A stretch of 64,000 nucleotides of DNA from Vicinamibacterales bacterium (GCA_965229825.1 CBDDJQ010000012.1:364067-428066); one strand, 5' to 3'. Positions 42,794-64,000 are shown, counted from the stretch's first letter. Notes: a model not told the origin generated them from the letters alone. A program made the numbers and translations.

Positions 42794-42905
42794 CCAGGAA
42801 GTCGTCGATGACGTGCGCCAGTGCGGGGTTCGACGGCCCGAAGCCGGTGGCGAGAAAGTCGCGGAGCGCGCCGGCCACCTCGTCGGCGACGACGGAGGGA
42901 ATCAT
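42792..42905 (-). pseudogene. 38-codon 5' remnant of a second giant DruE/Hhe-like helicase gene
   Basis: MIPSVVADEVAGALRDFLATGFGPSNPALAHVIDDFLA versus the N-terminus of the 2219-aa protein, MIPSVVAAEVTGALHDFLATGFGPSNSGLAHVIDDFLA (33/38 identical). About 86% nucleotide identity to 53338-53448, counted by hand. The ATG overlaps the Fic stop (ATGA). Confidence 0.75.
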
Positions 42906-44461
42906 CGCGACCGGACCTCCGGCACGATTCGCGTCGCCCTGTGCCCCCCGTCCGTCAGCCCGGCCAGGAAATCGGTGAACGGGCCGATGTCCCCGCGCAC
43001 GCTCGCGTCTTCCAGCGCCGCCATGTACGCGTCCCGCTGTTCCACCGGAATGATGGTCCAGGGATAGCCGGCGGCCGTCAGCATCAGGTTCATCAGGAAC
43101 CGGGCGATGCGGCCGTTGCCGTCCGGGTAAGGATGGACGTAGACGAACACGAAGTGGCCGAGCACGATCTGCACGGGCGGGTCGGGTTCTTCGCGCAGCA
43201 GATCGAAGAAGGCCGGCACCGCGTCGCGGACCGCCGCGGGCGCCGGCGGCACGTGCCTGGAGCCCTGGATGTAGACGGGGCCGTCGCGGTAGCCCGCGAG
43301 GTCGGCCGGCCGCGCGAGACCCCCCGCGACGCTCGGCGCGAACAGCTCCCGGTACCAGATCCGGTGATCCGCCTCCGCGACCGCGCCGGGCGATTCGCCC
43401 GCGAACACGCGGCGGACGCCGGCGCGCACGGCTTGGTGAGCCTGCCAGTAGCCACGGGCGGCGAGCGCGTCGCGGTGCGCGCGGTCCTGGGGGTGGAGTT
43501 CCGGGTTCCAGGCCCCGCTCCGCACCCGGTCGATCAGGGCCGGGCTGACGCGGTAGCCCTCGATGGAGAGCGAATGGTAGGCGTCCGTCACGTAGGCGTC
43601 CGCGATCCGGGTGACCACGGCGTCGACGTCCGCGGAGCGGCCGGGCGGCGCGGGAAAGCCCTCGAGAACGCGGCTTCGCATTGCGTCCCACAGCGAACGG
43701 AGGCGCTGAACCACCGGGGAAGCGCCGTGGCGGACGGGCAGGCTGGGGGGCGGCGCCGCGAAGGGATTGGACTCGCGCACGTCGAAGTCGGCCGTGCGCA
43801 TGGTGGCGGCGACCTCGTCCGCGACCTGGTCCCGGCCGACATCGCGGAAGGCGGCGGCCAGACGCCCGGCGACCGTCGCGTGGCCCCCGGCGAGGAGGCG
43901 CGGCAGCAGATCCGACGCATCGCGCACGAGGGCGAGCGCTGCCCGTGCATCGACCGGGAACCGGAGAAAGAACCGCGCCGGGCACGCGACCAGCGCGGCG
44001 GGCAGACTGAACGCGCGCATCCCCTCCAGCTCCACGACGCCACCGGCGTCAGGCGTTGCGGCGCGGACCTCGAGCAGGGACGTGCCATGCAGCAACGGGG
44101 TGACCCGATTGCGACCGCGGGGCGCCCGGACGAGAAGCTGCTCCGGCACCGTCCGGTTGCCGGCGTGGAGCGCGATCGACTGCTCGGGCGACAGACACCA
44201 CGCCGCGCCGAAGCGGACGTCCAGGTACCCGGCGCAGAAGCCCCAGAACGACGCGTACCACGCCGTACTGTCGCCCGTGCCCCGATCCGGCGCCCGGGCG
44301 ACGTACCATCCCTTCATCACCGGCGCCAGGAACCCGTGCCGGACGAGACGCTCGCGGTGCGTCCGCGCGAGATCCGCGGCGCGGATCGCGACCACGCCAC
44401 GCTTCTGAAGGGACCGCAGGAGGTCCAGCGAACCGGCCAGCTTCTCTGACGGCGGCGTCAT
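42902..44461 (-). CDS. Fic-family protein (class II, intramolecular inhibitory motif)
   Basis: 519 aa. Fic motif HPYPDGNGRIAR. Inhibitory (S/T)xxxE(G/N) motif in YHSLSIEGY upstream of it. Confidence 0.9.
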   Translation of the reverse strand: MTPPSEKLAGSLDLLRSLQKRGVVAIRAADLARTHRERLVRHGFLAPVMKGWYVARAPDRGTGDSTAWYASFWGFCAGYLDVRFGAAWCLSPEQSIALHAGNRTVPEQLLVRAPRGRNRVTPLLHGTSLLEVRAATPDAGGVVELEGMRAFSLPAALVACPARFFLRFPVDARAALALVRDASDLLPRLLAGGHATVAGRLAAAFRDVGRDQVADEVAATMRTADFDVRESNPFAAPPPSLPVRHGASPVVQRLRSLWDAMRSRVLEGFPAPPGRSADVDAVVTRIADAYVTDAYHSLSIEGYRVSPALIDRVRSGAWNPELHPQDRAHRDALAARGYWQAHQAVRAGVRRVFAGESPGAVAEADHRIWYRELFAPSVAGGLARPADLAGYRDGPVYIQGSRHVPPAPAAVRDAVPAFFDLLREEPDPPVQIVLGHFVFVYVHPYPDGNGRIARFLMNLMLTAAGYPWTIIPVEQRDAYMAALEDASVRGDIGPFTDFLAGLTDGGHRATRIVPEVRSR

Positions 44462-44680: not shown

Positions 44681-46789
44681 CTACAGCAGGCGGCTCGGCG
44701 TGTCGAAGCTCAGAACCAGCAGCTCCTTCTTCGCGCGCGTCGACGCTACGTAGATCAGCGCACGTTCCTCCGTCTCCGCCGATTCCCGCTCCACGGCGTC
44801 GCCGCGGGCGTCGATGGCGGCAGGTAGCGGCACCAGGTCGGCGTTGATGCTGGCCATGACGACGCGGTCGAACTCCAGCCCCTTGACGCGATGCATGGTG
44901 GCTAGTCGGACGCCCTCCGTCTCCGCCGTGTCGACCGCGCCGGCTTCGAGTGCGACGTGCGCAAGATTGTGTTCCCGGAGCGTGCCCGCGATGGCGTCGC
45001 GCTCGCGCCGGGTACGGGCGACGACGCAGACTCCGCGCAACGACGAGTCTTCCGCCTGGACTTCTTTCAGGTAGGCGACGATGAACGCGGACTGCTCCTC
45101 GCGGCTCTCGAAGTGTCTGAGCAGCGGTTCCGGGCCGCGGGTCAGCGACGTTATGCCCCTGTCGTCGTCCGAACCGCCGTCGAGGTCGTCGATCGCGCGG
45201 CCAGCCAGTAGGCGAGCGGCCCAACGGCGGGTTTCCTCGGTAGTGCGGTAGTTCAGCCGCAGCTTCCGCGATCGGCCGCGGACGTCGATGCCGCAACGGC
45301 CGAGCACGACCCTGTTCCGGCCGTAGATGCGCTGGTGGCCGTCGCCGACCACGAAGAGATCGTCGGCGGCGACGGGCACGATGTTGCGGATCAGGCGATA
45401 CGCCTGCGCGCCCATGTCTTGCGCCTCATCCACGATCACCGCGGCGTAGTCCAGCGCGCCCCGGTCGTTCTGGAGCAGCACGGCGGTATCGCGGTACGCG
45501 TCGTCCACTTCCTTCAGACCCCGCTCCGCCAGTTGAGTGCGGTACTCGTCGAATACGCGCCACGCCTTCGCGCGGGCGGCCCGGTTGAGGCGGCTGCCGC
45601 GGCCGACGCGAGAGACGCGCAGGTACTCGTCCAGCGTCGTCACGCCTTGGGCCTGCACGACCTGCTCCCACTCGTCGTCGTAGAACCCGTCGGGAAAGTC
45701 CAGGTCGGGGGGTTTCAGGTCCAACGCCCGCTGCCACGCGTCGTGGTCGCGGCCGAAGACGATGCGGAACTGGTAGCGACGGCCCCGCAGGAAGCGCACC
45801 ACCCAGTGGTCGAGGTTCGTGACGTCGATGCGCGCCAGCTCCTCGGGCTTGCAGATCGCGCCCAGGTTGTGCTTGATGTCGGCGGCCAGGTTCCTCGTGA
45901 AGGTAGTGAACAGGATGCGGCTGCGTCCCGGCAAGTTCCGCGCGAGCCACCGCGCGCGGTGCATGGCCACCACCGTCTTGCCGGTGCCGGCCGCGCCCAG
46001 CACCCGCGCGGGACCGTTCCATTGCCGTTCCACGAGGCGGCGCTGCGACGGGTGGAGGAACACCCGCCAGCGCTCCAGCGGCGCGTTGAGCATTGCCTCG
46101 AGCTCCAGCTCGTCTTCGACCACCACGAAGCGGCCCCGCGACTCGTGGCGGGCCAGCGCGGTGGCGAAGTCTCCGGTGTCGACCGGCTCAGGTGGAGCCT
46201 CCCGGTCGCGGACGAGCTGCTCGTAGCTCTCGCCCGCCAAGTAGAGGAAGAGGGCCTCGTAGGCTTCCAGGGGCAGGCGAGGCTGCATCCCGTCCAGCTC
46301 GGCGTCGTCCCGCACCGTGCGCACCTCGGCGAGCATGGCGGACGGGACTCCGAGCCGGGCCAGCTCCCGGTCCCGCAGCTTGCCGAAGGCCGGCGCCGAC
46401 GCCGCCGCATCCGCCGGCGGCGCCTGTGCCTCGGTCGCCGGTTCGCTGCTGGGTTCGTACACCTGCAGCGCGCCCGTCTCGGGGTTGATGCGGCACTCGT
46501 GCCGTCCCGCCCACGCGTAGGCTGCGTCGTGCTTGTCCGCCCACAGCAGCATGTGGACATCGCCCTGGTCGGGCTTGAGCACGATCGCGCGGTAGCCCTG
46601 GTCGATGCGGAGCGACCGCATGGCCGGATCGCGGGCGGTGTGGATCTTCTCGTAGTTCAGCCCGCTGGCCGTGGAGTCGACGTTGAACCGGGAGATGAGC
46701 GTCCTGACCCCGCGCTGCTGCGGCCTCGGCAGCCGCGCGAAGGCGTCCAGGAAGTCGCTCGACATCGCCATCTTCGTTCGTCCGGCCAT
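44681..46789 (-). CDS. SF1 UvrD/Rep-like helicase with about 110-aa N-terminal RelE/ParE-like domain
   Basis: ATG 46789 overlaps the upstream stop (TGATG). Walker A is GAAGTGKT. UvrD_C end: ATMHRVKGLEFDRV, YVASTRAKKEL. The N-terminal pattern (FLDAFARLPRPQQ, YEKIHTARDPAMRSLRIDQGYRAIV, VHMLLWADKHDAAYAWA) resembles toxin-fold domains; this last point is inference. Confidence 0.85.
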   Translation of the reverse strand: MAGRTKMAMSSDFLDAFARLPRPQQRGVRTLISRFNVDSTASGLNYEKIHTARDPAMRSLRIDQGYRAIVLKPDQGDVHMLLWADKHDAAYAWAGRHECRINPETGALQVYEPSSEPATEAQAPPADAAASAPAFGKLRDRELARLGVPSAMLAEVRTVRDDAELDGMQPRLPLEAYEALFLYLAGESYEQLVRDREAPPEPVDTGDFATALARHESRGRFVVVEDELELEAMLNAPLERWRVFLHPSQRRLVERQWNGPARVLGAAGTGKTVVAMHRARWLARNLPGRSRILFTTFTRNLAADIKHNLGAICKPEELARIDVTNLDHWVVRFLRGRRYQFRIVFGRDHDAWQRALDLKPPDLDFPDGFYDDEWEQVVQAQGVTTLDEYLRVSRVGRGSRLNRAARAKAWRVFDEYRTQLAERGLKEVDDAYRDTAVLLQNDRGALDYAAVIVDEAQDMGAQAYRLIRNIVPVAADDLFVVGDGHQRIYGRNRVVLGRCGIDVRGRSRKLRLNYRTTEETRRWAARLLAGRAIDDLDGGSDDDRGITSLTRGPEPLLRHFESREEQSAFIVAYLKEVQAEDSSLRGVCVVARTRRERDAIAGTLREHNLAHVALEAGAVDTAETEGVRLATMHRVKGLEFDRVVMASINADLVPLPAAIDARGDAVERESAETEERALIYVASTRAKKELLVLSFDTPSRLL

Positions 46790-49700
46790 CAACGTGTTCC
46801 CTCGCGCTCGGTCGGCACTGTACCACCCGCAAGCACGTTGCCGAGCGCTTCGGCAAGGTCGTCGGTGCCCGTCGTGAATGCCTGCCAGGCCGCCGCCCTG
46901 AACGCGGAAACGTCCGCGTGCTCATCGGCGAGCAGCACTGCGACCTGGAGCTCCGGCCAAGCGAGTTCGGCCTCGGCGAGTACCGCTCCTCTCGTTCCGA
47001 CGAGCTCGAAGCCGACTTCCGGTACGGGCGCGCCGCGGCCGGACAGCTCCCCGAGCAGGTCGTGAACCTCGGGAGCCGCGAGTTCCGTGGCATCCTTCCA
47101 GTCCTCGGCCGAGAGGCCTGACGCGGGTTGGGGTGGGGTCGGACTCTCGGCCGGGGGCGGAAACTCCGGATAGACGTCGCGCTCGACGCCGGTTCGCGTG
47201 GTCCACCAGGCGCCGGGCAGGAACTGGAGCAGGGTGAAGAGTCGCAGGACGCCGTTCCAGACGCGCCGATAGCCATCGCCCTCACGACTCGCCTGGTCGT
47301 CATGCAGGTGCACCACGACGGCTGCGGCGGCCGGGTCTCCCTGCTGCACGGCGGCCAGCGGGAAGGCAGTGAACAAGTCGAAGAACGCCGGAACTGTCCC
47401 GGTCCAGGCTCCGATGCCGGCCACGGCGATCGGGGGCGGCAGCTCGCCCAACGCCTCGCAGACCTGGCCGGGCAGCGCGCCCGCGGTGGCGCGGTCGAAC
47501 CCGGCGCGCATCGCACCGCTCAACATGTCCTGCCGATCGAACAAACCGAACAGCACCGTGAACACGGCCTGCTTCCACCGGGCCGGCTCCGGCGCCCGCA
47601 GGTAGTTCACGAGCAGCATCAACGTCGGTTCGGCGAGCCGGGACCGCAGACCCGCGGTGTCCCAGCGGCCGTCGAGGGTGCGCTGCAGCGCCGCCATGTC
47701 GTCGCTCGCCTTCGCGCCGGCGAGGAGGTCGGGAACGTCGGGCGCCTTGCCGAAGACGAACTCCAGATCGTGCCAGGTGAGCGACCAGACGAGGAACCCG
47801 GCCCGGACCAGAGCCATGCGCTTGAGCGAGTCGGCGTCCGTCGCGTCGCGATGGAACTCGAAGCCGTCGGTGAAGACCGCCACCGGGGGTTGGCCGGGCT
47901 CGGGTCGCGCGGGCCGGATCAGGAAGTCGGGGCGGCTGGGCTCGACGACGCCGTCGGAGGCGCCGAGGTCCGCCTGCGTCTCCATGTAGTAGGTGTGCGT
48001 GCCGATCTTCAGCACGTAGCCCGGCTTGCCATTCACGAGGTCGGCCCGCACCTGCACGGCCCGCGCGCCGTCCACCTCGACCCGGCGCAGCGCCTCGACG
48101 AAGCGCGCCTCGAGCTCGCTGTCGAACGTCGCATTGATGGTCAATCCGCCCAGGCTCGGTACCTCCTCCAACTCGTCCTTGTGGGCGAGGATGCGGTCGA
48201 GCATCTCGACCGCGGTGTCCCGGGATGTCTCGGCCATCTCCCGGCTGCGGCGGTAGGCGAACACGCAGCGATAGCAGCCGTCCGTCTCCGGGTCCTGGTT
48301 GCAGATGCAGGACTTGAGCGCTTCTCTTGCCTTCTCGAAGACCGACAGCAGCTTCTCGGGCTCGGTCATCAACTCCTTGAGGTAGCCGGTGCCGCTCGGC
48401 ACGGTGTCGTACAGCAGCAGGTACTGATGGGCCGCGCCCCCGCCGTCTTCCGGCGCGGCTCCCGGTCCCCGGCCGGCGGTCGCACCCTGCCGGGCGCTCC
48501 GGCGGGTCGTGGCCCGCAGGTGGTCGATCCGACCGCTGAAATGGCGTCGGAGACCGAGCTCCAGGGCCGCGACGAAGGAGCTGACGCGCCGCTCGGACCC
48601 CGGCGTGTCCAGCACCGGCAGCAACATCTGCACCGCCTCGGAGCTGAACTCGCGGTACAGGTAGAGGCAGTCGGCGATGTCGGCCGGCTCCGCCTTGCGG
48701 GCGCTGCAGGTCGAAGTGTGTTGGGCGTCGTCGTCGCCTCGCTTCTGCACCGTGCCGCAACGCCGGCAGACGCGGAAGCCGTCGCGGGGCAGCGCCAACC
48801 CGGCGAACGTCACCGGTTGCCCGCCGGTGCCCAGCCGCCCGAAGTTCATCTCGCGGAACGTCGCCGTCGCGATGTACTCGAAGCCGAACGCCGCGTCCGA
48901 CCGGGTCATGGCATAGGCGCGCTTGACGGCGGTGGGCTCGAAGTCCGCCGCAAGCTGCCGTGTGTGGAACAGCGGCTCGCGGTCATCGCGGTCGTCCGCG
49001 ATGCGGGCGCGCCGGTCGGAAGTCGCCGCATGCACCATCCGCAAGGGGAGCATCTCGCGGCGCTGGCCGGCGTCGGACCACATCACGTCGCCGCAGCGGG
49101 GACAGGCGACGTGATCGTCCGTGACGTCGACCCGCTCGCAGTGGTCGCAAGAGGGACAGAGCCGCCACGTCTCGATCGGCGACACGCGCAGATCGATCCT
49201 GTCTATGCTCACGCGGTTGCCACCGGCGTAGAACTCGTTCTCGGGGGCGAGTTCGCTGAGCGCGGAGGCGGCGGGGCGGACGTACTCGTAGACGTCGCGT
49301 TCGTCGCCCTGCTCGCCGGCGTCTTCCTCGTCCTGCTCGCGCGACCGGAAGATCACCGACTTCAGCATCACCCCGGCCTCCGGGAAGGCGTAGTTCGGCA
49401 AGAGCCCTTCGTCGGTCAGGAAGTTGAAGGTCTCGCGTCCGTTCAACCTGCGGAGCAGCCCCTGCAGGCCGCCGCGCTCCCGCGTGAGCCGCTTGATCTC
49501 CTTCGTCGTCGCTTCGTCCTGCGGCGCGCGCTTCAGGACCTGGATGCGGCGTCCCAGCGCGTCGACGTCGGCGCGCAGGGCCTTGCGCTCCTTCGCGATC
49601 TCGTGGAACCGGTTCACCATTCGGAACCGTAGCGACAGCCGAGGCTCGCCATCGCCATCGAGAGCGACGTCGCCATGGAGAAACCTGGTCAGGTAGTCGC

Positions 49701-52700
49701 GGGACTGATCGGACAGCTCGCCGGCCAACGCGTCACAGAACGTCTCCAGCAGGTCGTCGCCGTGGCGTTGCACGAAGTCGAAGAACGGATAGGGAAAGCG
49801 GGTCAGCGTGCCCTGCTCCACGTTGTCGAGCACCTGCCGAATGGTTCGCGGAACGGCGTCGTCGGGCAGACCGATCGCGGCCCAGCCGTCGAGACAGAAG
49901 GCGGTGAGCTGGCGTTCGAGCACGGCCGGCGCGTTCAGGAACACGCCCGGCGGCTCGATACGGCCAGCGAGCATGGCCAAGGGTTCGGCGTAGAAGTACA
50001 GATCGTGGGACTGGCCCGTCGCCACCGTGGCGGTGAACGCGTTGCCGTCGCGGCGGCCGGCGCGTCCGATGCGTTGCAGGTAGTTCGCTTGCGCCGGCGG
50101 CACCGAGCAGAGGACCACCGTGGAGAGGTCGCCGACGTCGATGCCGAGCTCCAGGGTGGGCGTCGCCGACAGCAGGTTCGGCTCCCACGGCGGCGGGTTC
50201 GGATTGGAGAAGCGCTGCTGCAGGCGGTCGCGCTCGTCGCGGGTCAGCAGCGCGGTGTGCTCGGCTGCGACAAGGCGCCGAACCAGGGTCTCGCGATACA
50301 GGCGTCCGAACCAGGTGGGCGGCTCCACCGCGTGGCGCTCGTAGACCGCCTGCACGCCGAGGTCCAGGCAGGAAACGCCCAGCCACAGGTCCGCCTCGTG
50401 CTCGGGCACGACGAGGGTCCGGTTCGACCCGGCGCAGCGCATCACCGCGGTGCGCGCGGTGGCGTAGAAGCGCGCCGGGTCGAGCGCCCAGGCGCGGCCG
50501 CCCCGCCCGGCCTCGATGCGGCAGACGAGACCCGCGTCCTCCAGCGCGTGCAGCGCTTCCAGCAGCACGTCGGGGGCCTCGCGCGTGGCGGCGAGCACGT
50601 CGACGGGCGTCAGGACCCTCTCGACCCATGCCTGGTACCAGGACCTCCGTCCGCCGTTCCTGGAGAACAGTGGTTCGATGCCGTCGCTGGCGTGAGGCGT
50701 GTCGACCGGGAAGATGGGCCGGGGGGACCGAGGACCGAAGTCCTGCAGCGCGGGTTGTCGCGTCAGCCACCAGCGTTCGCCCCCCGCCGCCAGCCATGCG
50801 CTCGCCACGTCGCTCCGGATGGCGCCGCGGTCCTTCATGCGCCGCAGGACGCCGAGGATCAGCGAGCGCACCGCCGCCGGGGCCAGATCGCGCATCGCCC
50901 CGAACTTCTCCCGGATGCGCAGATGCGCGCCGCGGCACGCCCGCTCCAGGGCCTCGCGGTCCACGCCGACCGCGGCGGCGCGCGTTCGTTCCAGGGTACG
51001 GCCGATGGCCGACCGGTAGCCGAGCTCGGCCAGGGTATCCCAGCGCAGCCGCTCTGCGACCGCCTCCGGCAGCCGGGAGCCGGCCGGCAGCCGGCCCTCG
51101 CGTTGCAACGTCACGAAGTCGCGCCGCCACAGCCGGTCGGGGGCGATGAACTCGCTGACGAAGCGCTCGTCGTCGAACGCCCCGGGGTTGATCTTGGTAT
51201 CGCGCCACCACGTCTCCACCCTCTCGGGAAGGTCCGCCAGCGCGATGCCGTCGTGCCGTTCGACGACTTGGGCGATGGCCGCCCGGACCCCGACGTTCGC
51301 GGTCCGCGCCGCGAAGAACCCGGCGCGATGGGCGGCGTCCTGCACGTTGTCCGAGAAGGCGATCACCTTGCGGTCGTCGTTGTAGCGCGACCCCTGGGCC
51401 TGACCCAGCGTAACGCTCAGCAGGCTGGCGGCGCGGGCGCCGACGATGATCAGCGCCCCTCGCGCTCCGCAGTACGGACAGTCCCGGCTCAGTCTCATCG
51501 ACCGGGACTCGCCGCGGCCTCGGGACTCGACCGAGACGGGCCGGAAGACGCGCACGAGGCGTTCCGAACGGCACCCGGTGCAGGTCGTGGCGTCCGCGGC
51601 CAGCACCATGCCGCACGCCCCGCAGACCATCACGTCCAGGCCGCGGACCCCGGGCGGCGCGGCGGCCGGGAACAGGTACGCCACGTCGACGTCGCGGAGG
51701 AAGAACCGGTTGTAGAACACCCGCAGGTCGCCTTCCAGGCGTTGCTCCGCGGGACGCTTGACGGCGCCCCAGCCGGTGACGTGACACTCGCGGCACTGGA
51801 TGAGGGGCAGGTGGATCGAGGGCTCGTCCGGCTTCAGGTCGTCGAAGAAGCGCAGCCGGCGCGGAATCGCCGCGCCGTCGACGGCGTGCGCCGCCGGGGT
51901 CGCGATGGTGCGACGCGCCGAGGTGGGCGGCCCGACGGCCGCGCCCTTCACCGCCGCGGGCGGCGCCCCGTTCGAGGCGGGCGTCTCGAGGCCGGACCCG
52001 ACCGGCGGATCGGCCCCGCTCGTGCCACCGGCGCGCCGGTCCGGCGATTCCTCGACCGACCCCTCGGTCTCGTCCTCGTACAGGCTGCACACCATGCGTC
52101 GCAGCTCGCGCACCCAGAGATGCAGGCCGACCTGGAGAAACGGCCGCAACGCAGCTCCGCCGCCCGTCCCCTCGTGGCGGCGCGCTACCGAGATCAGGGC
52201 ACACAGACCGTTCAACACCCCGAGCGCCTCGCGGTCGTTGGCCGCCGGCAGACTGTGGCGCAGCCGACCAACGATGTCCGACATCGGCGTCGGGCGCCCG
52301 TCGAGCACGCGCAGCAGGTTCACGAACGTCGAGTGCTCGCGCAGGCGGTCCCCGAGGGCCGGCCGCCACGCGTCGGATGCGAAGTCGCCCTCGATGGGCG
52401 CGCCGAAGAAGAGCTCGTGCTGGGCTCGAATGTACGCCTCGGCCGTCGCATGCCGCGTGGGTTCCACGCGGGCCGCCAGATCGTCGGCCGCATGCAGGTG
52501 GCGGCTGATGACCGCGTCGCCGAGAAAGGCGTCGATGCTCTGACGGACCTCGCCGACGATCGCCCCCGGCTCGAAGGGCTGGTCGAAGATGCGCGAGAAG
52601 TACGCCAGCAGCTCCGCCTCGTCGGACTCCGCGCCGAGGGTGGCCGACGTCCCGGCGCAGATCAGCGTGTCGCGCGACGCGCCGAGCCGTACCCGCAGGC

Positions 52701-53448
52701 GCCGGATCAGGCACGCAAGGTCTGTCCCCTGGGCGCCGTCGAACGCGTGCAGTTCGTCGACCACCAGGTACCGCAGCGTGTCCGGCCCGTTGTGCCGCCA
52801 GAGCCGGAAGTCGAACGGCCGGACCAGCAGGTAGTCCAGCATCTTGTAGTTCGTCAGCAGGATGTCCGGCGGCCGTTCGCGCAGCGTGTCACGGTCGGTG
52901 ATGACGTGGTCCCGGCCCATCGTCTTGTGGGCCGACCGCTGCGGCTGGTTGTCGCGGCCGACGAAGACTCCCGCGGTGACCCGGCCGCGCAGCGCCGGCG
53001 TGCGGTCGATGGTCTGGGCGATGCGCCGCGCCTGGTCCGCCGCCAGCGCGTTCATCGGGTAGACGAGGATGGCCTTGATGCCCGGCGCACCGGCCCGTTC
53101 GCGACAGTAGTCGAGGATGGGGAAGAGGAAGCACTCCGTCTTGCCCGAGCCGGTGCCGGTGGCGACCGTCGTCGACCGCCCGACGCCCGCGGCCAGACGC
53201 GAGAACGCCGTGCGCTGGTGGCGGTACGGGGTGAACCCGAGCGGCACCTCGGGGAACGGCTCGCCGCCGTCGGGCGCGGGCTGGAACGGCAGGGCGATGG
53301 AGAGGTACGGCCCCTTGGCGAGGGTGTCGGGCTGGGCGAGGAAGTCGTCGATGACGTGCGCCAAGCCGGAATTCGACGGTCCGAAACCGGTGGCGAGGAA
53401 GTCGTGCAGAGCGCCCGTGACCTCGGCGGCGACGACGGAGGGAATCAT
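46789..53448 (-). CDS. 2219-aa DEAD/DEAH-box helicase with DUF1998-like zinc-ribbon module and C-terminal Vsr/DUF559-like nuclease-fold domains (DruE/Hhe-like)
   Basis: Motif I ATGTGSGKTE, motif II VVDELH, motifs V-VI LELGIDVGDL and YLQRIGRAGRR. Cys4 clusters: CRECH, CGACG..CTGC, CPYCG, CPSCDHC..CPRCG, CRRCG. C-terminal region: SELEARFVEAL, PDFLIRP, VAVFTDGFEFH, then a second AEAELAWPELQVAVLLAD unit. Confidence 0.9.
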   Translation of the reverse strand: MIPSVVAAEVTGALHDFLATGFGPSNSGLAHVIDDFLAQPDTLAKGPYLSIALPFQPAPDGGEPFPEVPLGFTPYRHQRTAFSRLAAGVGRSTTVATGTGSGKTECFLFPILDYCRERAGAPGIKAILVYPMNALAADQARRIAQTIDRTPALRGRVTAGVFVGRDNQPQRSAHKTMGRDHVITDRDTLRERPPDILLTNYKMLDYLLVRPFDFRLWRHNGPDTLRYLVVDELHAFDGAQGTDLACLIRRLRVRLGASRDTLICAGTSATLGAESDEAELLAYFSRIFDQPFEPGAIVGEVRQSIDAFLGDAVISRHLHAADDLAARVEPTRHATAEAYIRAQHELFFGAPIEGDFASDAWRPALGDRLREHSTFVNLLRVLDGRPTPMSDIVGRLRHSLPAANDREALGVLNGLCALISVARRHEGTGGGAALRPFLQVGLHLWVRELRRMVCSLYEDETEGSVEESPDRRAGGTSGADPPVGSGLETPASNGAPPAAVKGAAVGPPTSARRTIATPAAHAVDGAAIPRRLRFFDDLKPDEPSIHLPLIQCRECHVTGWGAVKRPAEQRLEGDLRVFYNRFFLRDVDVAYLFPAAAPPGVRGLDVMVCGACGMVLAADATTCTGCRSERLVRVFRPVSVESRGRGESRSMRLSRDCPYCGARGALIIVGARAASLLSVTLGQAQGSRYNDDRKVIAFSDNVQDAAHRAGFFAARTANVGVRAAIAQVVERHDGIALADLPERVETWWRDTKINPGAFDDERFVSEFIAPDRLWRRDFVTLQREGRLPAGSRLPEAVAERLRWDTLAELGYRSAIGRTLERTRAAAVGVDREALERACRGAHLRIREKFGAMRDLAPAAVRSLILGVLRRMKDRGAIRSDVASAWLAAGGERWWLTRQPALQDFGPRSPRPIFPVDTPHASDGIEPLFSRNGGRRSWYQAWVERVLTPVDVLAATREAPDVLLEALHALEDAGLVCRIEAGRGGRAWALDPARFYATARTAVMRCAGSNRTLVVPEHEADLWLGVSCLDLGVQAVYERHAVEPPTWFGRLYRETLVRRLVAAEHTALLTRDERDRLQQRFSNPNPPPWEPNLLSATPTLELGIDVGDLSTVVLCSVPPAQANYLQRIGRAGRRDGNAFTATVATGQSHDLYFYAEPLAMLAGRIEPPGVFLNAPAVLERQLTAFCLDGWAAIGLPDDAVPRTIRQVLDNVEQGTLTRFPYPFFDFVQRHGDDLLETFCDALAGELSDQSRDYLTRFLHGDVALDGDGEPRLSLRFRMVNRFHEIAKERKALRADVDALGRRIQVLKRAPQDEATTKEIKRLTRERGGLQGLLRRLNGRETFNFLTDEGLLPNYAFPEAGVMLKSVIFRSREQDEEDAGEQGDERDVYEYVRPAASALSELAPENEFYAGGNRVSIDRIDLRVSPIETWRLCPSCDHCERVDVTDDHVACPRCGDVMWSDAGQRREMLPLRMVHAATSDRRARIADDRDDREPLFHTRQLAADFEPTAVKRAYAMTRSDAAFGFEYIATATFREMNFGRLGTGGQPVTFAGLALPRDGFRVCRRCGTVQKRGDDDAQHTSTCSARKAEPADIADCLYLYREFSSEAVQMLLPVLDTPGSERRVSSFVAALELGLRRHFSGRIDHLRATTRRSARQGATAGRGPGAAPEDGGGAAHQYLLLYDTVPSGTGYLKELMTEPEKLLSVFEKAREALKSCICNQDPETDGCYRCVFAYRRSREMAETSRDTAVEMLDRILAHKDELEEVPSLGGLTINATFDSELEARFVEALRRVEVDGARAVQVRADLVNGKPGYVLKIGTHTYYMETQADLGASDGVVEPSRPDFLIRPARPEPGQPPVAVFTDGFEFHRDATDADSLKRMALVRAGFLVWSLTWHDLEFVFGKAPDVPDLLAGAKASDDMAALQRTLDGRWDTAGLRSRLAEPTLMLLVNYLRAPEPARWKQAVFTVLFGLFDRQDMLSGAMRAGFDRATAGALPGQVCEALGELPPPIAVAGIGAWTGTVPAFFDLFTAFPLAAVQQGDPAAAAVVVHLHDDQASREGDGYRRVWNGVLRLFTLLQFLPGAWWTTRTGVERDVYPEFPPPAESPTPPQPASGLSAEDWKDATELAAPEVHDLLGELSGRGAPVPEVGFELVGTRGAVLAEAELAWPELQVAVLLADEHADVSAFRAAAWQAFTTGTDDLAEALGNVLAGGTVPTEREGTR

Positions 53449-53484
53449 CGGATCCGGCCCGGGGCGATCCCGACCGTCAGCGGA

Positions 53485-53965
53485 TCACAGTCCTGCGCTT
53501 TCATCGTCTTCGAAGAGCGGAAGGGCCGACCCCATGTTCGGCCTCCCGATGATCAACGGCGGCTCGCCCAGCTTGCCGGAAAAACGGCTCAGCGGAACGT
53601 CGAACGTGTCGATCTGTTCGATGGGTACGTCGCGTTTCAGCGCTGTCGCCAAGTGAACCGCGTCTTTCGGCTTCACGTTGTGTCTCCACACCAGCGCCCT
53701 GGCGTCTTCGGCGATGAATCTGTCCCAGTTCCCTGATGACGATCCACTCGTGCCTGAAGAATGCCTCCACCTTGGCCGCAGAATCCGCCGATATGCGGTC
53801 CTGTCCCTTTATCCAGAGCACCTCGGGAATTGTCAGGGCAGAGGTCAGAATTCTCACTCTTCCCGCCTCGGCCGCCTCGATGACCGGGCGACAATAGTCG
53901 ACCTTGTCGGATTCCTCGGCGAGCCACCCCAGGAACGCGTTCGAGTCCCAGTATCGAAAGTCCAC
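53485..53965 (-). pseudogene. PIN-domain nuclease gene with one frameshift (extra G/C at 53724-53726)
   Basis: GTG 53965 overlaps the upstream TAG by 1 nt. VDFRYWDSNAFLGWL...ILTSALTIPEV...EWIVIREL is in one frame. DRFIAEDARALVWRHNVKPKDAVHLATAL...DTFD is in the next frame, ending at 53485. Confidence 0.75.
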
Positions 53966-54786
53966 TATTGCGCGTCCCTGAGCAGTCCGCGAACCTCCTG
54001 CGCGGAGGGCAGCTCGTCCTCGCGCGGGAACACGTAGTACGACGACACGTTGATCGACGCTCGATATCCCGACCGCCGCGACCGGATCTCGCCGGTGACC
54101 GCCATCCGCTTACCGAAGACGTCCCTGAGTCGCTCCCACGAGATCGCATTACCGAAGTAGCAGACCACCTGCCGTCCCGTCAGTCGGTCGTACAGAAGGA
54201 ACCGCTTCGTGCCATGGATGATCAAGCCCTCGAGCTCCCCCTCGATCGTGCCGATGGTACGCACCTCTGGCGACAGCACGGACTCCACATGGGCCAGCAG
54301 CTTGGACGTCAGCGCGACCGGCCGCTCTCGTGCAGTGCTCACGCTGAGCGCCGGCGTCTCCGGACCGACGAGTCTCGCCAACTCCCGGAGCTTGACCAGC
54401 GCGTCGTCGCTGAAGTGGCGGGGCCGCTTCGCCGTCTGGCGCAGCTCTTCGATCCCGGAGGCTACGGTCCGGGCGATCTCGGGCATCGCGAACGCAGGTA
54501 CGTTCTCCCTCGCCGGTTCCGGCCGCACGCAGAGAGCGAAACTGCCCCCCGACGCCTCCGTGATCACGTAACGAACCGCATCCTTCGCCGGCCTTCCCGT
54601 GACCCCTCTACCGACCTCCCCGAGAAAGTCCCTCCACGACTCGACGAGCCGCGTCAAGGTCGCAAGCGTGACCTGACCCTCGACGTGCAAACGGATGCGC
54701 CCGTCCCGTTCCGTGTCCGACGGCGACCCCAAGTGCTTCTCAGCCATCGCGGCGTATTCTGCCCTCACCTCACCGGCCATCCGCAT
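53965..54786 (-). CDS. hypothetical 273-aa protein in the antitoxin position upstream of PIN
   Basis: Uninterrupted ORF with coding-like composition and no motif I recognise. The stop is shared with the PIN start (TAGTG). Confidence 0.55.
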   Translation of the reverse strand: MRMAGEVRAEYAAMAEKHLGSPSDTERDGRIRLHVEGQVTLATLTRLVESWRDFLGEVGRGVTGRPAKDAVRYVITEASGGSFALCVRPEPARENVPAFAMPEIARTVASGIEELRQTAKRPRHFSDDALVKLRELARLVGPETPALSVSTARERPVALTSKLLAHVESVLSPEVRTIGTIEGELEGLIIHGTKRFLLYDRLTGRQVVCYFGNAISWERLRDVFGKRMAVTGEIRSRRSGYRASINVSSYYVFPREDELPSAQEVRGLLRDAQ

Positions 54787-54879
54787 ACAAGCGGAGCGCT
54801 GGACGGCGGCCCGGCCCGTCTCGTGGACCGGGCGTTCGGCGTGTGTCGCGTTCCTCGGCGAGCTGCGTCAGCCGCACGA

Positions 54880-55562
54880 TCAGCTCGTCGCCGCTGTCGG
54901 CCCGCACGATCCACTCGTCCTCCCCGCCGGTCGGCGCCAGCCGCGTCGCCGCAACTCGGGGTCGTGCGGGTCGCTCAGCTTCGCCTGCAGCGCCTCCACG
55001 ACACGGGCCAAGTCGGCCGCCGAGCCGCTCCGCTCGAGATCCACCAGCGACCTCACCAGATTGTCGCCCGGGAGATCGTCTTCCGCCAAGTGGTGCCCGT
55101 CAACCACGTCGTGCCGCTGAGCCGGTTGATACTGCGCCGGATCCGGCCCCACCGTCGCGATCAACTCGTGCATCTCCCGAGCCGCCCGCCATGGCCGCGC
55201 GCCGTTGTACAGCACCACAGGCAGCACGGCCGGCAGGGGTTCGCCCGACGCCACCGCCACTCGAGAGCCCCACCAGGTACAAGCCAACCGCCGCGCAGGC
55301 GGACCCGCCACACGGTATCCTCGTGCCGCCTGAGCAGGTCGTCGCTGACGTACTCGGCCGACAGCTTCGGCAGCGTCGTCGAAAAGTCGATGTCGTCCAC
55401 CCGCAGACCGGCCACGAAGCCGCGCAGCAGGTCTTCGATCATGCGCGGGAATGCGAATAGCTCTTGTGGGTCTCGTCGTACATCTTCTCCAGTGCCGCCC
55501 TGTGGTCCCCCCGCTCCGCTCGCCCTCCGGTAGCCTGACGGCAAAAACGCCGTGCCCAACAT
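54880..55562 (-). pseudogene. Rpn-family (YhgA-like, PD-(D/E)xK) recombination-promoting nuclease/transposase, decayed
   Basis: LFAFPRMIEDLLRGFV, DDLLRRHEDTVWRVRL in one frame and PLPAVLPVVLYNGARPW in another. The central LLEFQS-type segment appears deleted. Confidence 0.55.
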
Positions 55563-55630
55563 CGGCTCGCGCCCCTTGACGGTTGCCAGCTCGCCGTTTC
55601 GACGACGGGTATCATGGCCGGAGGAGGCGC

Positions 55631-55999
55631 ATGTCATCGGTACCCGGACAGTACCTCGCGCTCGTCATCAAGGAGGAGGGCAGCGACTGGAATGTCGTGT
55701 TCCCCGATCTGCCCGGCTGCGTCACGGCCGGACGTTCGCTCGACGAAGCCGTGGCATTCGCCGAGGAGGCCCTGGCGCTGCACGTCCACGGCCTGCGAGA
55801 GGATGGCGAAGCCCCGCCGGCGCCATCGGGCATCGAGGACATGATGGCCGATCCGGAGTCGGCCGGCGCACTGTTCTACCTGGTTCCCCTGAAACCCCTT
55901 GAGGGCCGCACGTCACGGGTCGACATCACCCTCGGCGGCGTCAGGGCCGCCAGCTGCTTCATGAGGAAACCGTTGGGCAGGTCCGACGAAGCGTCGTAG
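55631..55999 (+). CDS. HicB-family antitoxin-like protein, orphan, C-terminus aberrant
   Basis: ATG 55631 follows GGAGGAGG. YLALVIKEEGSDWNVVFPDLPGCVTAGRSLDEAVAFAEEALALHV is typical HicB. After RVDITL the expected RHH tail is absent. No hicA gene is adjacent. Confidence 0.7.
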   Translation: MSSVPGQYLALVIKEEGSDWNVVFPDLPGCVTAGRSLDEAVAFAEEALALHVHGLREDGEAPPAPSGIEDMMADPESAGALFYLVPLKPLEGRTSRVDITLGGVRAASCFMRKPLGRSDEAS

Positions 56000-56364
56000 C
56001 GGGCGCGGCGACTGTGCCCGCCCGTGTAGGCGTAGCACTCTGCCCGGCCGTGATTGTCCAGGAGGACGACCACGGAACCGGGCGAATCCGGCGACTTGAA
56101 GTGGATGGCGACCTCAGCATCGCGAGTGGGATAGACCGTGGGCGCCCACGGGTGCCGCGCCAAGCCGACGATGATCCGCTCGGCTTCCTTCCTGACGGAC
56201 GCCCCGATTTCCGGAAGGCCGTCCTCCACGATCTCGTCGTCCAGTTCCGCGAGCGCCTGCAGGGCATCCGCCAGCCAAGCCGACGGCGTTGTGCGCGATC
56301 CTTGAACTCCGATCGTCCGTGCCCCGACCGACATCCGTGATTCGTCTGCGCTTCGATCACGCAT
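55876..56364 (-). CDS. hypothetical protein
   Basis: 162-aa ORF whose start overlaps the PIN_3 stop by 8 nt. It overlaps the hicB-like 3' end convergently by 124 nt. No recognised motif. Confidence 0.35.
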   Translation of the reverse strand: MRDRSADESRMSVGARTIGVQGSRTTPSAWLADALQALAELDDEIVEDGLPEIGASVRKEAERIIVGLARHPWAPTVYPTRDAEVAIHFKSPDSPGSVVVLLDNHGRAECYAYTGGHSRRARYDASSDLPNGFLMKQLAALTPPRVMSTRDVRPSRGFRGTR

Positions 56365-56795
56365 CGGTTCTGCCTGTCCTCAAGTTCACGAGCTCCAGGA
56401 CTGCTGCGGGAGCGAGAATCCGGATTCCGTGGTACGGATCCAGCTCCAGCAGGTGTCTATCGCCGGTCGCGATAGCATCCGCACGCGCCCCCAACGCCGC
56501 CCCAATCACGTGATCGTCGTCGGCGTCCGCGGGCACGGCCCGATCCACCGGCATCGGTCCGACCAGCGTCGTGACCGCCCCGTACCGCCGCGTCAGGAAC
56601 GCCGGCGTGAGGTCGCGTGAAGTCAACGCCGCGACGAACTTTCCGCGTTCAAGAACTCCGGCCAACTCGTCGAGAAAGGACAGCGCTCGAGAACAGCGCG
56701 ATCTCGCCGCTCACGGCCAAGTCGAGGAGTCGCTCGGGCGGTCCGTCCCAAATCAGCGCCGACACGACCACGTTGGTGTCAAGCACCAGCCGCAC
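56357..56795 (-). pseudogene. PIN-family toxin (PIN_3/TIGR00305-like) with one frameshift near 56680-56690
   Basis: GTG 56795 gives VRLVLDTNVVVSALIWDGPPERLLDLAVSGEIALFSSAV. After a frame change the protein continues LDELAGVLERGKF...DDDHVIGAALGARADAIATGDRHLL. Confidence 0.7.
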
Positions 56796-57024
56796 GCCGG
56801 CGCCTCTCCGCCCGGACGGCATCCACTTCCCTCTGAATTTCCGCCATGGTCATCGGCGCAAGCTCGGCCGCAGCCAACTCCTTCGCAGCATCCAGAAGCT
56901 CCCGTCCCGCGCGCCGACGAAGCGCATCGCGAATCATGGCCTCAACCGCGCGGCCGGCAAGCAGTCCCTGGCTCCTCGCTTCCTCCGCCAACTCATCCGG
57001 CAATTCGATGGTGATCGTCGTCAT
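56779..57024 (-). CDS. putative antitoxin of the PIN_3 module
   Basis: 81 aa, MTTITIELPDELAEEARSQG. Its 3' end overlaps the toxin GTG by 17 nt. Confidence 0.55.
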   Translation of the reverse strand: MTTITIELPDELAEEARSQGLLAGRAVEAMIRDALRRRAGRELLDAAKELAAAELAPMTMAEIQREVDAVRAERRRRAAGA

Positions 57025-57401
57025 GGGTCCTCCACGCAGAAACTCCGCCGTTCGTCACGCTTCGACACCCTCAGTACTCAGAATCATCGCAAAGAGCCGT
57101 CGACGACAACCGTGCGAACGTGGATTCCTTCTTCTTCCGACAAGCGCTCCGCTTGCTGTCGCAGATCCTCTCGCGCCGACTTCATGGACGGCCACTTCGG
57201 GCGATGGCTCTCTCGAAGCTCGCCCGGCCGAGGAAGGCTCATCCAGACGACGACGTAGACTCCATGACTCGCGCCGAGCTGGGGCATGTAATACGGATCG
57301 CATCGCCTGACATCGTTCCGCGGCCCGGCACCTGAACCAGAATATCGACCTCGGACCCCGGCTCGCCGCCACGAGCAAGCGCAACGCTGCGCCTATGGAT
57401 C

Positions 57402-57526
57402 TCCACTTCCCGATCGGCAGCAACCGCGTAGTCCCGCATGTACAAACGAACCACCGCGCACAGCTTCCACTTCCCGATCGGCGACCGCGTAGTCCCGCAT
57501 GTACAAACGAACCACCGCGCACAGCT
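57402..57526. repeat. tandem duplication, 64-bp + 61-bp copies
   Basis: TCCACTTCCCGATCGGC(AGCA/G)ACCGCGTAGTCCCGCATGTACAAACGAACCACCGCGCACAGCT occurs twice. It encodes KLCAVVRLYMRDYAVA(A)DREVE twice and shifts the frame. Confidence 0.9.
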
Positions 57527-58668
57527 TGCGCGATACGTGTTCCTCGGCCTTCGGCGTCTGAACCGCGCCTTTGGCCGCATTCCACAGGTCTTCCGGACTC
57601 TCTCCGTCGTCCCGCCTCAGCGCGGTCGCGTAGTTCTCCAAGGCGTATTCGATTCCGTCGACGACGTCATCCTCCGACCGAATCAATCGCTTCGCCTCCG
57701 CGCCAACTACGCTGGCAACTACATCCACGCAAAATGGGGACCAGCGCGAAAGCCGCAGAGCGCGCTCCGCCTCGGATCTCGGCCGTCTGAGCCACGGATA
57801 ACGCCCACCGAAACCGCGTTCCAGATTCCGCAGCGCGACCACGGATTCGACATCCTCCAAACCGCCGAGGTACGAAATCAAGCGGCTCCTCAACGTGCGT
57901 ACCGACTCGTCCGCCGTGACCTCGTGAACACCCTCGAAGACTCGATCGGTCTCCGGCGGAAACAGCTCAATCAGGATCTCCGCCAACTCGCCCACTTGCT
58001 GCGTAGAAACCGACTTGAGAAGCCTCGATTCGCCTTCGTGAGCCAATCTCCCCATGACTCGGCGCCCTCGTTCGTCCCCAGAACACACAAATGCCTTCAG
58101 CGAATCCCAGGTCTCCCCCGCTCGCCAGCGCAACAACGATACCGCGACCGTTTCAACGACCGGCTCGTCCATCCCTTCCACCGCGCCGTTCAGAATATCC
58201 AGGCACACGGGGATCGATATCTCCGGCGCGCGCGTCAACACGAACTTCCCGACGGTGTTGACGTTGCGCTCCGAAATCGCGTTTGCCCGCATTGCCGCAC
58301 ACAGCTTCTCGTCGAGTTCGGTATTGGGCTTCTCCAGCAACAACGGCAGCAAACTCGGCAAGATGTCGCCAAAGTCGTCGTCCTGTCCCGACGCGAGCCC
58401 CAAAACCTCCTGACACACGGTAGCTGGACTATTCTCATTGAGAAGCCCCAAGATCCCCTGCTTGGGTTCGCTGGGTTCACCGGCTAGGTCCGGTATCACC
58501 CCACGAAGAATGTACCAACACCAGCTCTTCCACCACGACTCCGCACGCGACTCCAGCCAGCCCGCATCGCGTTCCAGAATGAGCCACATTGCTCCGAGAA
58601 CATCCCCAGGAATCGATCTCGGCGCCAAGTCGCGCGAAGCCTCGGACGCAATGTCCTCCTCAGACAGG

Positions 58669-58676
58669 TATCTTCT
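58669..58676. repeat. 8-bp target-site duplication TATCTTCT (left)
   Basis: Identical to 60416-60423, directly abutting the ISL3 inverted repeats. Confidence 0.85.
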
Positions 58677-62940: not shown

Positions 62941-64000
62941 GACCTGCGGGGCCCGTTCTCGGTGGTCCAACGCGCGAACGCTTGCCATGCCGTGCGGTAG
63001 TCCTGCTCGCGGTCGCATCGGTCGAAGGGCGCCCGGTACTCGATCTGGCGCTCCACGGGGCCGCCGGGGAGTGTGTCGTCGATGATGCGCCGGGTGATGA
63101 CGCCGTCCTGGAGATCGCGGACGTCCTCCCACCCAAGGGCGGTGTCAGCGCGGACGGCGGCGGGGGTGCGCAGGGTCCAGGCCGTGTCACCCGTGACGGC
63201 CTTGCGAGGCAGGCCGACGCGGGGGAGGCCCTTCGAGGCGGTGAAGACGATGCGGCCGTTGGCGTCGTACCACGTGTCCACCTCGTACTGGCGCATGACG
63301 GGAAACTGCACGCGGTAGATGGTTAGCAACTCGTCGAGCGTCAGACCAAGTGCCAGCGCCGCCAGCACGTCGATCTCCACAAGCGCCTGGCGGCGGGCGT
63401 AGTCGCTGCGCAGGGCGACGCCACGGCGCCAGTCGGGCGGCAGGCCGAGGAAATCGGCGGCCAGACGGGGATCGGGGCGGGTCCAGGCGTCGCCGCGAAA
63501 CGCGTCCAGGCAGGGGACGCTGGCGCCGGGCAGGCGAGCCCGGCAGGCGTCCCGCCAGAGGTCGGCGTAGTGGACGGTGATGCAGGAGAGGCGGAGCGCC
63601 CGCAGGTGCAGGGCACTGCGCAGGCGGGGATGGCAGTCGTCGGTGAGAATGGGGAGGCGGCTGAGCCACGCGCGTTGGACGTGCCCGATGCCGGTGCTCT
63701 TGACAAAGAAGTCGAGGACGAGGGATATCGACAGGGCCGCGAAGTCTAGGCAGGCGCTCGCATCGTGGAAGATGCTCGCAACAGCGGTGTGTATGTGGGC
63801 CGTCCCCCCAGCGATCAACGCGGTGATGAGCGTGCGTTCCGCGGACGGGCCAACCATCTCCCGATTCAAGACGCGGTAGTACGCGGTCACCTTTCGGGGC
63901 GCGCTCTCGCCGGGCTCCCGCCACGGGACCGCGGGTGTGCGGCGCCGATATTCGTCCGGCTCACAGGCGGGCACGTAGTTGGTACGCGGCAGGTAGTCGT
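62937..64000 (-). CDS. C-terminal part of a large DNA methyltransferase / type IIG-IIL RM-like protein (partial, continues past window end)
   Basis: The frame is open to position 64000. ERTLITALIAGGTAHIHTAV and LVLDFFVKS resemble the TaqI_C-like target-recognition region. The C-terminal strings ALVEIDVLAALALGLTLDELLTIY and YRAPFDRCDREQDYRTAW recall RM-type methylase tails. This is recognition by memory only. Confidence 0.45.
   Translation of the reverse strand, partial: DYLPRTNYVPACEPDEYRRRTPAVPWREPGESAPRKVTAYYRVLNREMVGPSAERTLITALIAGGTAHIHTAVASIFHDASACLDFAALSISLVLDFFVKSTGIGHVQRAWLSRLPILTDDCHPRLRSALHLRALRLSCITVHYADLWRDACRARLPGASVPCLDAFRGDAWTRPDPRLAADFLGLPPDWRRGVALRSDYARRQALVEIDVLAALALGLTLDELLTIYRVQFPVMRQYEVDTWYDANGRIVFTASKGLPRVGLPRKAVTGDTAWTLRTPAAVRADTALGWEDVRDLQDGVITRRIIDDTLPGGPVERQIEYRAPFDRCDREQDYRTAWQAFARWTTENGPRRS

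Follow-up and report, generated by a model that had tools for sequence, protein, structure and literature searches.

The distal half of a probable ARMADA type II anti-phage operon, with cargo genes, in a Vicinamibacterales genome

Do four tightly packed genes of a Vicinamibacterales bacterium form a defence system of their own, or do they belong to a system that is already known? The question is raised by a DNA stretch of 64,000 nucleotides (GCA_965229825.1 CBDDJQ010000012.1:364067-428066; in the following the window), which has a GC content of about 70 %. Four co-oriented genes on its minus strand (44681-54786) encode a protein of 273 amino acids (aa), a PIN protein, a giant helicase of 2219 aa and a UvrD-like helicase of 702 or 703 aa. 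An annotation made from the sequence alone, the original prediction, had taken them for a defence operon not described so far, with likeness to Druantia and Hhe. The four open reading frames (ORFs) were indeed present, and the expectation of a defence locus was borne out by homology to ARMADA II. The locus very probably belongs to an anti-phage operon of ARMADA type II (armA-armB-armC-armD), of which it forms the distal half, with the giant helicase as ArmC and the UvrD-like helicase as ArmD. The assignment was made because gene content, gene order and homology to validated Escherichia coli proteins agree. ARMADA was defined, and its anti-phage activity validated in E. coli, by Bell et al. 2025 (PMC12458937).

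A linkage analysis led to this identification. Eighty genome loci from many phyla that encode full-length homologues of the giant helicase were sampled with 10-kb flanks, and junctions were counted in those loci in which they were measurable (31 for armA-armB, 52 for armB-armC, 69 for armC-armD). The host genome is affiliated to the Vicinamibacterales (Acidobacteriota), and the closest relatives of the window were metagenome-assembled genomes of the same order. For the UvrD-like neighbour, the linkage suspected in the original prediction proved to be strong: an ArmD homologue, N-terminal domain included, was encoded in 75 of the 80 loci, and its start was not more than 300 bp away from the armC gene in at least 61 of 69. 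For the PIN and 273-aa genes the same analysis turned out negative, as they accompany ArmC only in locus L050 and, as a fragment, in L002. Since the adjacency of armC and armD is conserved and the 273-aa/PIN genes are rarely present, the helicase pair is the conserved unit and the other two genes stand outside of it. Thus the proposed four-gene unit did not hold; the true partners are ArmB and ArmA, encoded upstream, partly and wholly beyond the window. Homologues of the armB 3' end at 62937-64000 were located upstream of ArmC in 54 loci, and the order ArmA-ArmB-ArmC-ArmD was kept wherever the flank was long enough.

The path to the validated system went from an Enterobacter relative (L069) to an E. 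coli locus (L086, NZ_CP051158) with the gene order DruE, ArmA, ArmB, ArmC, ArmD. The system of E. coli NCTC 12900 confers direct, non-abortive protection against phages, and all four genes together with the ATPase and methyltransferase motifs are needed (PMC12458937). A study on enterohaemorrhagic E. coli EDL933 confirmed the ARMADA II phenotype and the requirement for all four genes; according to this study, DefenseFinder predicted ARMADA II in the strain (mBio 2026, PMC13463889). Bell et al. mutated the residues ArmA K136/D236, ArmB G605/N971, ArmC K110/D234 and ArmD K266/D454 (PMC12458937). The numbering of the proteins of L086 matches that of the paper exactly, and all eight residues are conserved in the Vicinamibacterales genome: K143 and D243 in ArmA, G585 of the S-adenosylmethionine-binding motif and N983 of the NPPW motif in ArmB, K103 and D231 in ArmC, and the Walker residues K271 and D454 in ArmD. 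Identities to the E. coli proteins were 52 % for ArmA, 48-50 % for the collinear ArmB and 49 % for ArmD from end to end; ArmC was collinear as well, with 45 % identity over aa 1-456 and 35 % over aa 531-2189. Among 5426 complete E. coli genomes, 526 contained DNA that matches the beginning (4 kb) of the Enterobacter armC at about 84 % identity; of the 533 places with such a match, 15 were plasmid-borne. In RefSeq, the arm genes of E. coli carry only generic labels for helicases and a methyltransferase.

The domain architecture was obtained by scanning the proteins of the window with profiles of Pfam, NCBIfam and PADLOC (v2.0.0 of 2023, a release without ARMADA models), and by AlphaFold2 and Foldseek for structures. 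The profile searches matched the giant helicase, the UvrD-like helicase and the PIN protein; the 273-aa protein matched no profile. In ArmC, Pfam located a DEAD domain (aa 76-274), Helicase_C (1061-1133) and MZB/DUF1998 (1629-1729), and the PADLOC models DruE1 and DruE3 matched with E-values of 3e-90 and 8e-89 (about 300 bits). The cysteines C1714, C1716, C1725 and C1728 of the zinc motif were invariant across 14 relatives. Further downstream, a Vsr-like motif, RPDF...FTDGFxxH, was found with D1841, D1861 and H1866 invariant in 41 sequences. Bell et al. placed an active Vsr domain at this position of ArmC, often followed by inactivated EEP and Vsr domains (PMC12458937). An hhalign comparison of ArmC to E. 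coli Vsr aligned 29 columns, the catalytic motif alone, with a probability of 22 % and an E-value of 0.001. Among the 41 C-terminal regions of ArmC proteins, none matched the Vsr or DUF559 families of Pfam and two matched MTES_1575 (best E-value 0.029); a PDB sequence search with the C-terminus yielded chance matches only (E > 1). PLD families had no match in Pfam scans of the whole ArmC or of the 41 C-terminal regions. The last about 80 aa resemble the C-terminus of ZorE (PADLOC and NCBIfam) and contain the conserved motif PEVGFEL...AEAELAW; this second Vsr-like domain is probably inactive.

The armC gene is joined to armD by a TGA/ATG overlap (cgtTGATGgcc), one of two overlaps that had been predicted and were both recovered in the sequence. 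Pfam identified UvrD-helicase and UvrD_C at aa 247-694 of ArmD. Numerous GajB models of PADLOC matched this helicase core (best E-value 5e-29); the best 25 of 48 PADLOC matches comprised NERD+UvrD proteins, GajB and a DRT-associated helicase, and DruH was not among these 25. The N-terminus of ArmD was modelled by AlphaFold2 with a mean predicted local distance difference test (pLDDT) value of 84.8, and the top Foldseek matches in the PDB were the toxins RelE, YoeB and YafQ. The best match, 3bpq_B (E-value 5.5e-4, target-normalised TM-score 0.77, root mean square deviation 2.4 Å), belongs to the PDB entry that is also given for the N-terminal domain of ArmD in Table S2 of the ARMADA paper (PMC12458937). 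At the sequence level, no match to the ArmD N-terminus was obtained in the PDB. As judged from the predicted structure, the N-terminus of ArmD is a RelE-like domain. In some further proteins (P0217, P0222, P0224), a RelE-like domain with linker of the ArmD type is joined to DUF7664 (PF24701) and not to a UvrD helicase; these fusions suggest that the RelE-like module is exchangeable.

The proximal half of the operon was read from other assemblies of the same genome, which were recovered by exact-protein look-ups. ArmB has 1729 aa and extends just past the window; it matched Eco57I/N6_Mtase in Pfam and REase_MTase_IIG (7e-252), DrmMI (7e-51) and PglX in PADLOC. ArmA, a protein of 984 aa encoded past the window end (L082 1014-3968), contains SNF2-rel_dom, ResIII and Helicase_C domains and was matched best by DrmD (6e-100), besides BrxHII (7e-57). 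The DrmD and BrxHII matches of ArmA and the DrmMI and PglX matches of ArmB fit the name ARMADA, "disARM-related". In these assemblies the gene order is AbiEii, ArmA, MazE-like/PIN, ArmB, 841-aa NTPase, cargo, ArmC, ArmD. None of the four arm genes is truncated, and each has its catalytic motifs preserved; in four independent assemblies of the genome the arm ORFs were intact. Between armA and armB lie two inserted genes (L082 4032-4810), one for a MazE-like antitoxin and one for another, unrelated PIN protein; such an insert was also present in one relative (L002 1604-2307), and the junction was otherwise uninterrupted.

The region between armB and armC is of a different kind. Inserts of more than 600 bp occurred at one of 31 armA-armB junctions, at 29 of 52 armB-armC junctions (0.7-9 kb) and at six of 69 armC-armD junctions (1.7-7.5 kb). 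The armB-armC junction is a slot into which defence and toxin-antitoxin (TA) genes of other kinds are often inserted. The gaps contained 79 ORFs, mostly co-oriented with the operon, with genes for AbiEi/AbiEii, AbiLi, GmrSD, dynamin-like LeoA/BC, OLD-family ATPases (AriA/GajA/Ppl-like), Uma2, HicB, patatin, Schlafen and YhgA-like proteins. In the Vicinamibacterales genome the slot extends over about 9.5 kb (53449-62936) and is partly decayed. It contains an NTPase gene split by an insertion sequence (IS), TA and YhgA/Rpn remnants, a HicB-like gene and the 273-aa/PIN pair. The start of the NTPase gene overlaps the armB stop by 4 nt. Its 841-aa and 431-aa parts are contiguous in the Vicinamibacterales ARMADA loci L003, L001, L044 and L052, as a single ORF of 1372 aa in L003 (4810-8928), and in these relatives, too, the gene starts at the armB stop; the 841-aa part gave only weak AAA/nSTAND3/NACHT matches, and the 1372-aa gene had no family in Pfam or PADLOC. 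The IS is an ISL3 element of 1.73 kb with a DDE_Tnp_ISL3 transposase and terminal inverted repeats of 21 nt (58680-58700 and 60392-60412). Across armC-armD, the assemblies that different samples had yielded for this genome (L081-L085) were about 99.99 % identical; in the slot (56783-58093 of the window) they differed by extra IS (DDE_Tnp_1, DUF4372/DDE_Tnp_1), a 1.65-kb segment and a deletion; the cargo slot is therefore polymorphic in the population. Coordinates are collected in Table 1.

Table 1. Features of the window within and next to the distal ARMADA half (aa, amino acids; strand as in the window)
Feature	Position	Strand	Basis or remark
armD	44681-46789	-	702 aa from ATG at 46789; alternative TTG start 46792
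RelE-like domain of ArmD (~aa 6-111)	46457-46774	-	AlphaFold2/Foldseek
armC, 2219-aa YprA-family SF2 helicase and putative nuclease	46789-53448	-	Pfam, PADLOC, collinearity with E. coli ArmC
Second Vsr-like C-terminal domain of ArmC, probably inactive (aa 2112-2193)	46870-47115	-	
Vsr-like PD-(D/E)xK motif region of ArmC (aa ~1835-1895; RPDF...FTDGFEFH...KR)	47764-47946	-	
MZB/DUF1998 zinc-binding domain of ArmC (aa 1629-1729)	48262-48564	-	PF09369, 2.8e-9
PIN gene of the cargo pair, 1-nt insertion near 53722	53485-53965	-	PF01850, 1.5e-11 (repaired)
273-aa protein of the cargo pair, predicted C-terminal OB fold	53965-54786	-	AlphaFold2/Foldseek
Decayed cargo stretch	54880-57024	.	Pfam and gene calls
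YhgA/Rpn-like remnant	54880-55311	-	Pfam Transposase_31, 2e-7
HicB-like gene, no obvious HicA	55583-55999	+	HicB_lk_antitox on gene calls
162-aa ORF, also in L044	55876-56364	-	
PIN_3 C-terminal remnant	56357-56665	-	Pfam PIN_3, 1e-4
Antitoxin-like 81-aa ORF	56779-57024	-	
C-terminal 431-aa part of split NTPase gene	57393-58688	-	contiguous with 841-aa part in relatives
ISL3-family insertion sequence splitting the NTPase gene	58680-60412	-	DDE_Tnp_ISL3 and 21-nt inverted repeats
N-terminal 841-aa part of P-loop (weakly STAND-like) NTPase gene	60415-62940	-	weak AAA/nSTAND3/NACHT matches
armB 3' end, PglX-like N6-adenine methyltransferase, last ~353 codons	62937-64000	-	runs off the window

The 273-aa and PIN genes overlap in the other predicted manner, TAG/GTG (caaTAGTGgac). 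The predicted gap of 36 nt from the stop codon of PIN to the ATG of ArmC exists with the frame of the PIN gene repaired; in the gene as found it does not. Near 53722 its reading frame is broken by one extra nucleotide within a GGG run. Every assembly of the genome that was examined shows this insertion, and the homologue in L050 lacks it. The frameshift may reflect a real pseudogene or a systematic homopolymer error of long reads. Many of the ArmD homologue fragments that databases contain from similar assemblies are frameshifted, too. The repaired protein has 159 aa with a PF01850 match of 1.5e-11, and intact homologues align over aa 1-157. For the 273-aa protein, no match was obtained in Pfam, NCBIfam or PADLOC. 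Its family comprised 79 members, all of about 250-270 aa and none annotated. The AlphaFold2 model (mean pLDDT 82.6) contains a C-terminal five-stranded barrel, to which Foldseek aligned the OB domains of LysRS and Stn1/Ten1 with an E-value of 1.5e-4 and a low whole-query TM-score of 0.24; a C-terminal OB fold is predicted on this basis.

The pair has a life outside ARMADA. In 24 metagenome loci and in L088, a member of the same PIN family follows the 273-aa homologue within about 25 nt, and neither ArmC nor ArmD was encoded on the fetched flanks of these loci. The metagenomes (L088-L117) originated from soil and groundwater; one instance adjoins a relaxase and a primase, and in another the PIN gene is cut by an IS. 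As the pair is rare together with ArmC and occurs elsewhere without ArmC and ArmD, it has to be seen as cargo rather than as part of the ARMADA machinery. It behaves like an autonomous TA-like or small defence module with an unusually large partner. A UvrD-like gene about 1.8 kb away from distant relatives of the 273-aa protein (25 % identity; L120, L123) was considered as a link to ArmD and rejected, for it is a generic helicase with 24 % identity to ArmD.

Defence genes also flank the operon. An AbiEii-like nucleotidyltransferase gene is located directly upstream of armA (L082 8-853), and a Fic-domain gene of 519 aa (42902-44461, minus strand; PADLOC SoFic 7e-19) lies about 220 nt downstream of armD. 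The Fic gene was not a conserved neighbour of ArmD in the 80 loci and may be a separate single-gene defence system. Both genes together show a small defence island around ARMADA. The surroundings listed in the original prediction were all retrieved, i.e., the Fic gene, the HicB-like gene, the YhgA/Rpn-like remnant, the P-loop NTPase, the ISL3 transposase and the methylase 3' end.

Three other explanations were weighed. That the 273-aa, PIN, giant helicase and UvrD-like helicase genes constitute one undescribed system related to Druantia or Hhe was suggested by their tight packing and common orientation, by the recurrence of the 273-aa/PIN/ArmC arrangement in L050, and by the PADLOC models of 2023, which gave only DruE and GajB matches for the four-gene block and assigned no complete system. 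This explanation is refuted by the linkage counts and retains hardly any probability: 78 of 80 ArmC loci lack the 273-aa and PIN genes, which exist as an independent pair elsewhere, ArmA and ArmB consistently precede ArmC and ArmD, this genome included, and the four-gene ARMADA II has already been published and validated (PMC12458937, PMC13463889). The second possibility, a type III-like Druantia variant with a lost or replaced DruH, draws on DruE1 and DruE3 as best PADLOC matches of the giant protein (about 1e-90) and on a published tree with ArmC and DruE as sister clades (PMC12458937). Yet these matches are fragmentary and amount to about 300 bits only for a protein of 2200 aa. No fully shown neighbour matches DruA-D, DruF-H or DruM, and the 273-aa and PIN proteins match nothing in PADLOC. 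Instead of a PLD domain the C-terminus has the Vsr-like motif, the E. coli locus encodes DruE and ArmC as separate genes side by side, and the same tree sets ArmC as a clade apart from, though next to, DruE (PMC12458937). We regard a Druantia variant as extremely unlikely. Membership in Druantia was rejected, as neither a partner gene (DruA-D, DruM/F/G, DruH) nor a PLD domain was found. Hhe, a single gene for a helicase with a Vsr-like endonuclease, was rejected on account of the conserved four-gene context; the Hhe model was not among the best 25 PADLOC families listed for ArmC. Gabija was rejected because no GajA-like gene adjoins ArmD in the window and at least 61 of 69 loci pair ArmD with ArmC; DISARM and Dpd membership were considered and rejected as well. 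Several elements of the original prediction are in line with this outcome: the giant protein resembles DruE and has a Vsr-like motif in its tail, the second helicase is a RelE-like/UvrD fusion according to Pfam and Foldseek, and the pairing of both falls outside Druantia and Hhe. The term undescribed has to be withdrawn, since literature and homology identify ArmC-ArmD as a part of ARMADA II, an already defined system (PMC12458937).

A third explanation accepts the genes as ARMADA and supposes a decaying remnant, in which IS and cargo have uncoupled armCD from armAB and defence has been lost. The gap of about 9.5 kb with its ISL3 element, split NTPase gene, TA remnants and frameshifted PIN gene is consistent with decay, as are the further IS insertions that vary among assemblies of the same population and the need for all four genes in E. 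coli (PMC12458937, PMC13463889). But the four arm genes have kept their full length and their catalytic motifs, their ORFs are intact in four independent assemblies, and inserts at armB-armC in 29 of 52 loci are the norm, so that an interruption is evidently tolerated. A non-functional remnant is considered unlikely. Some points also weigh against the assignment to ARMADA II as a complete and working system. The type II label is based on gene content, order and homology. With armA-armB split from armC-armD by about 9.5 kb with IS and pseudogenes, co-regulation, and with it the function of the whole system, is only putative in this genome; a scan of 44.3-56 kb detected no promoter or terminator signal, a result that is uninformative at 70 % GC. 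The Vsr assignment is tentative in view of the weak, motif-only hhalign match and the silence of Pfam. The assignment to ARMADA type II nevertheless remains by far the most probable explanation.

By homology, a working order can be proposed for the ARMADA proteins. The PglX-like methyltransferase ArmB would mark the host DNA. The Snf2/RapA-like ArmA and the YprA helicase ArmC might then engage phage DNA that is unmarked or bears single strands, and ArmC could translocate or unwind this DNA and cut it with its Vsr-type domain. ArmD would act as a required fourth ATPase. By analogy to the E. coli phenotypes, the outcome would be a direct, non-abortive defence dependent on all four genes. The 273-aa/PIN pair would stand outside this machine.

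The core finding, an Acidobacteriota example of a defence system already known from E. coli, alone changes little. The PADLOC models of 2023 label such loci only as orphan matches to DruE, GajB and a type IIG methyltransferase, which is probably why the locus had looked new. What is left of novelty concerns the cargo slot and the OB-fold/PIN pair, which has no annotation. Cargo between armB and armC in over half of the measured type II loci bears on the transcription of the operon and on a possible action of ArmAB and ArmCD as separable modules, and the OB-fold protein/PIN pair without a family annotation is a candidate TA or defence module. A keyword look at the ARMADA paper found no mention of embedded cargo (PMC12458937). 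A tentative extension, which we hold to be possible rather than likely, is that armB-armC serves as a dedicated slot recruiting auxiliary modules, with the cargo of this genome, the undescribed OB-fold/PIN pair and the 1372-aa NTPase in translational coupling to armB, as back-up effectors integrated in function and not as passengers.

Among known systems, the cargo pair resembles TA systems of the VapBC type in the translational coupling of the PIN gene to an upstream partner and in its conservation as a pair in contexts of mobile elements. It differs in this partner, which has about 250-270 aa and is predicted to contain an OB fold; a small DNA-binding domain of the antitoxin types AbrB, RHH, PhD or HTH is not recognisable in it. 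The slot has a counterpart in BREX, where auxiliary effectors are embedded in the core loci (PMC12839542): in both cases, genes of other defence systems are found between core genes of a system that combines a methyltransferase with helicases, here at the armB-armC junction of ARMADA II. With Gabija the operon shares the helicase core of ArmD, which the GajB models recognise; GajA, the OLD-family nuclease partner, is missing, ArmD has a RelE-like N-terminus, and the operon context is another one. The relation to class I DISARM is seen in ArmA, with DrmD as best match, in ArmB, with its DrmMI match, and in ArmC, which corresponds to a fusion of DrmA with the DUF1998 protein DrmB. In contrast to DISARM, helicase and DUF1998 are thus combined in one protein, a PLD protein DrmC is absent, and a UvrD-like ArmD is added. 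Druantia likewise has a giant helicase of the YprA family, with DUF1998 and inserts that bind zinc, and its DruE models match ArmC; here, the C-terminus has a Vsr-like motif and no PLD domain, and the companions are a Snf2 helicase, a methyltransferase and a UvrD helicase in place of the Druantia partner genes.

The closest likeness is to the ARMADA II of E. coli NCTC 12900 and O-island 172 of strain EDL933. The same four proteins appear in the same order, collinear at 35-52 % identity and with the eight catalytic residues kept, and both systems share DUF1998 and, tentatively, a Vsr-like tail in ArmC, and the fusion of a RelE-like domain to a GajB-like UvrD helicase in ArmD. The Vicinamibacterales proteins are longer by about 100 aa in ArmC and about 86 aa in ArmB. 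The genes of E. coli abut or overlap, whereas in this Acidobacteriota host a MazE-like/PIN insert separates armA from armB and about 9.5 kb of cargo separates armB from armC.

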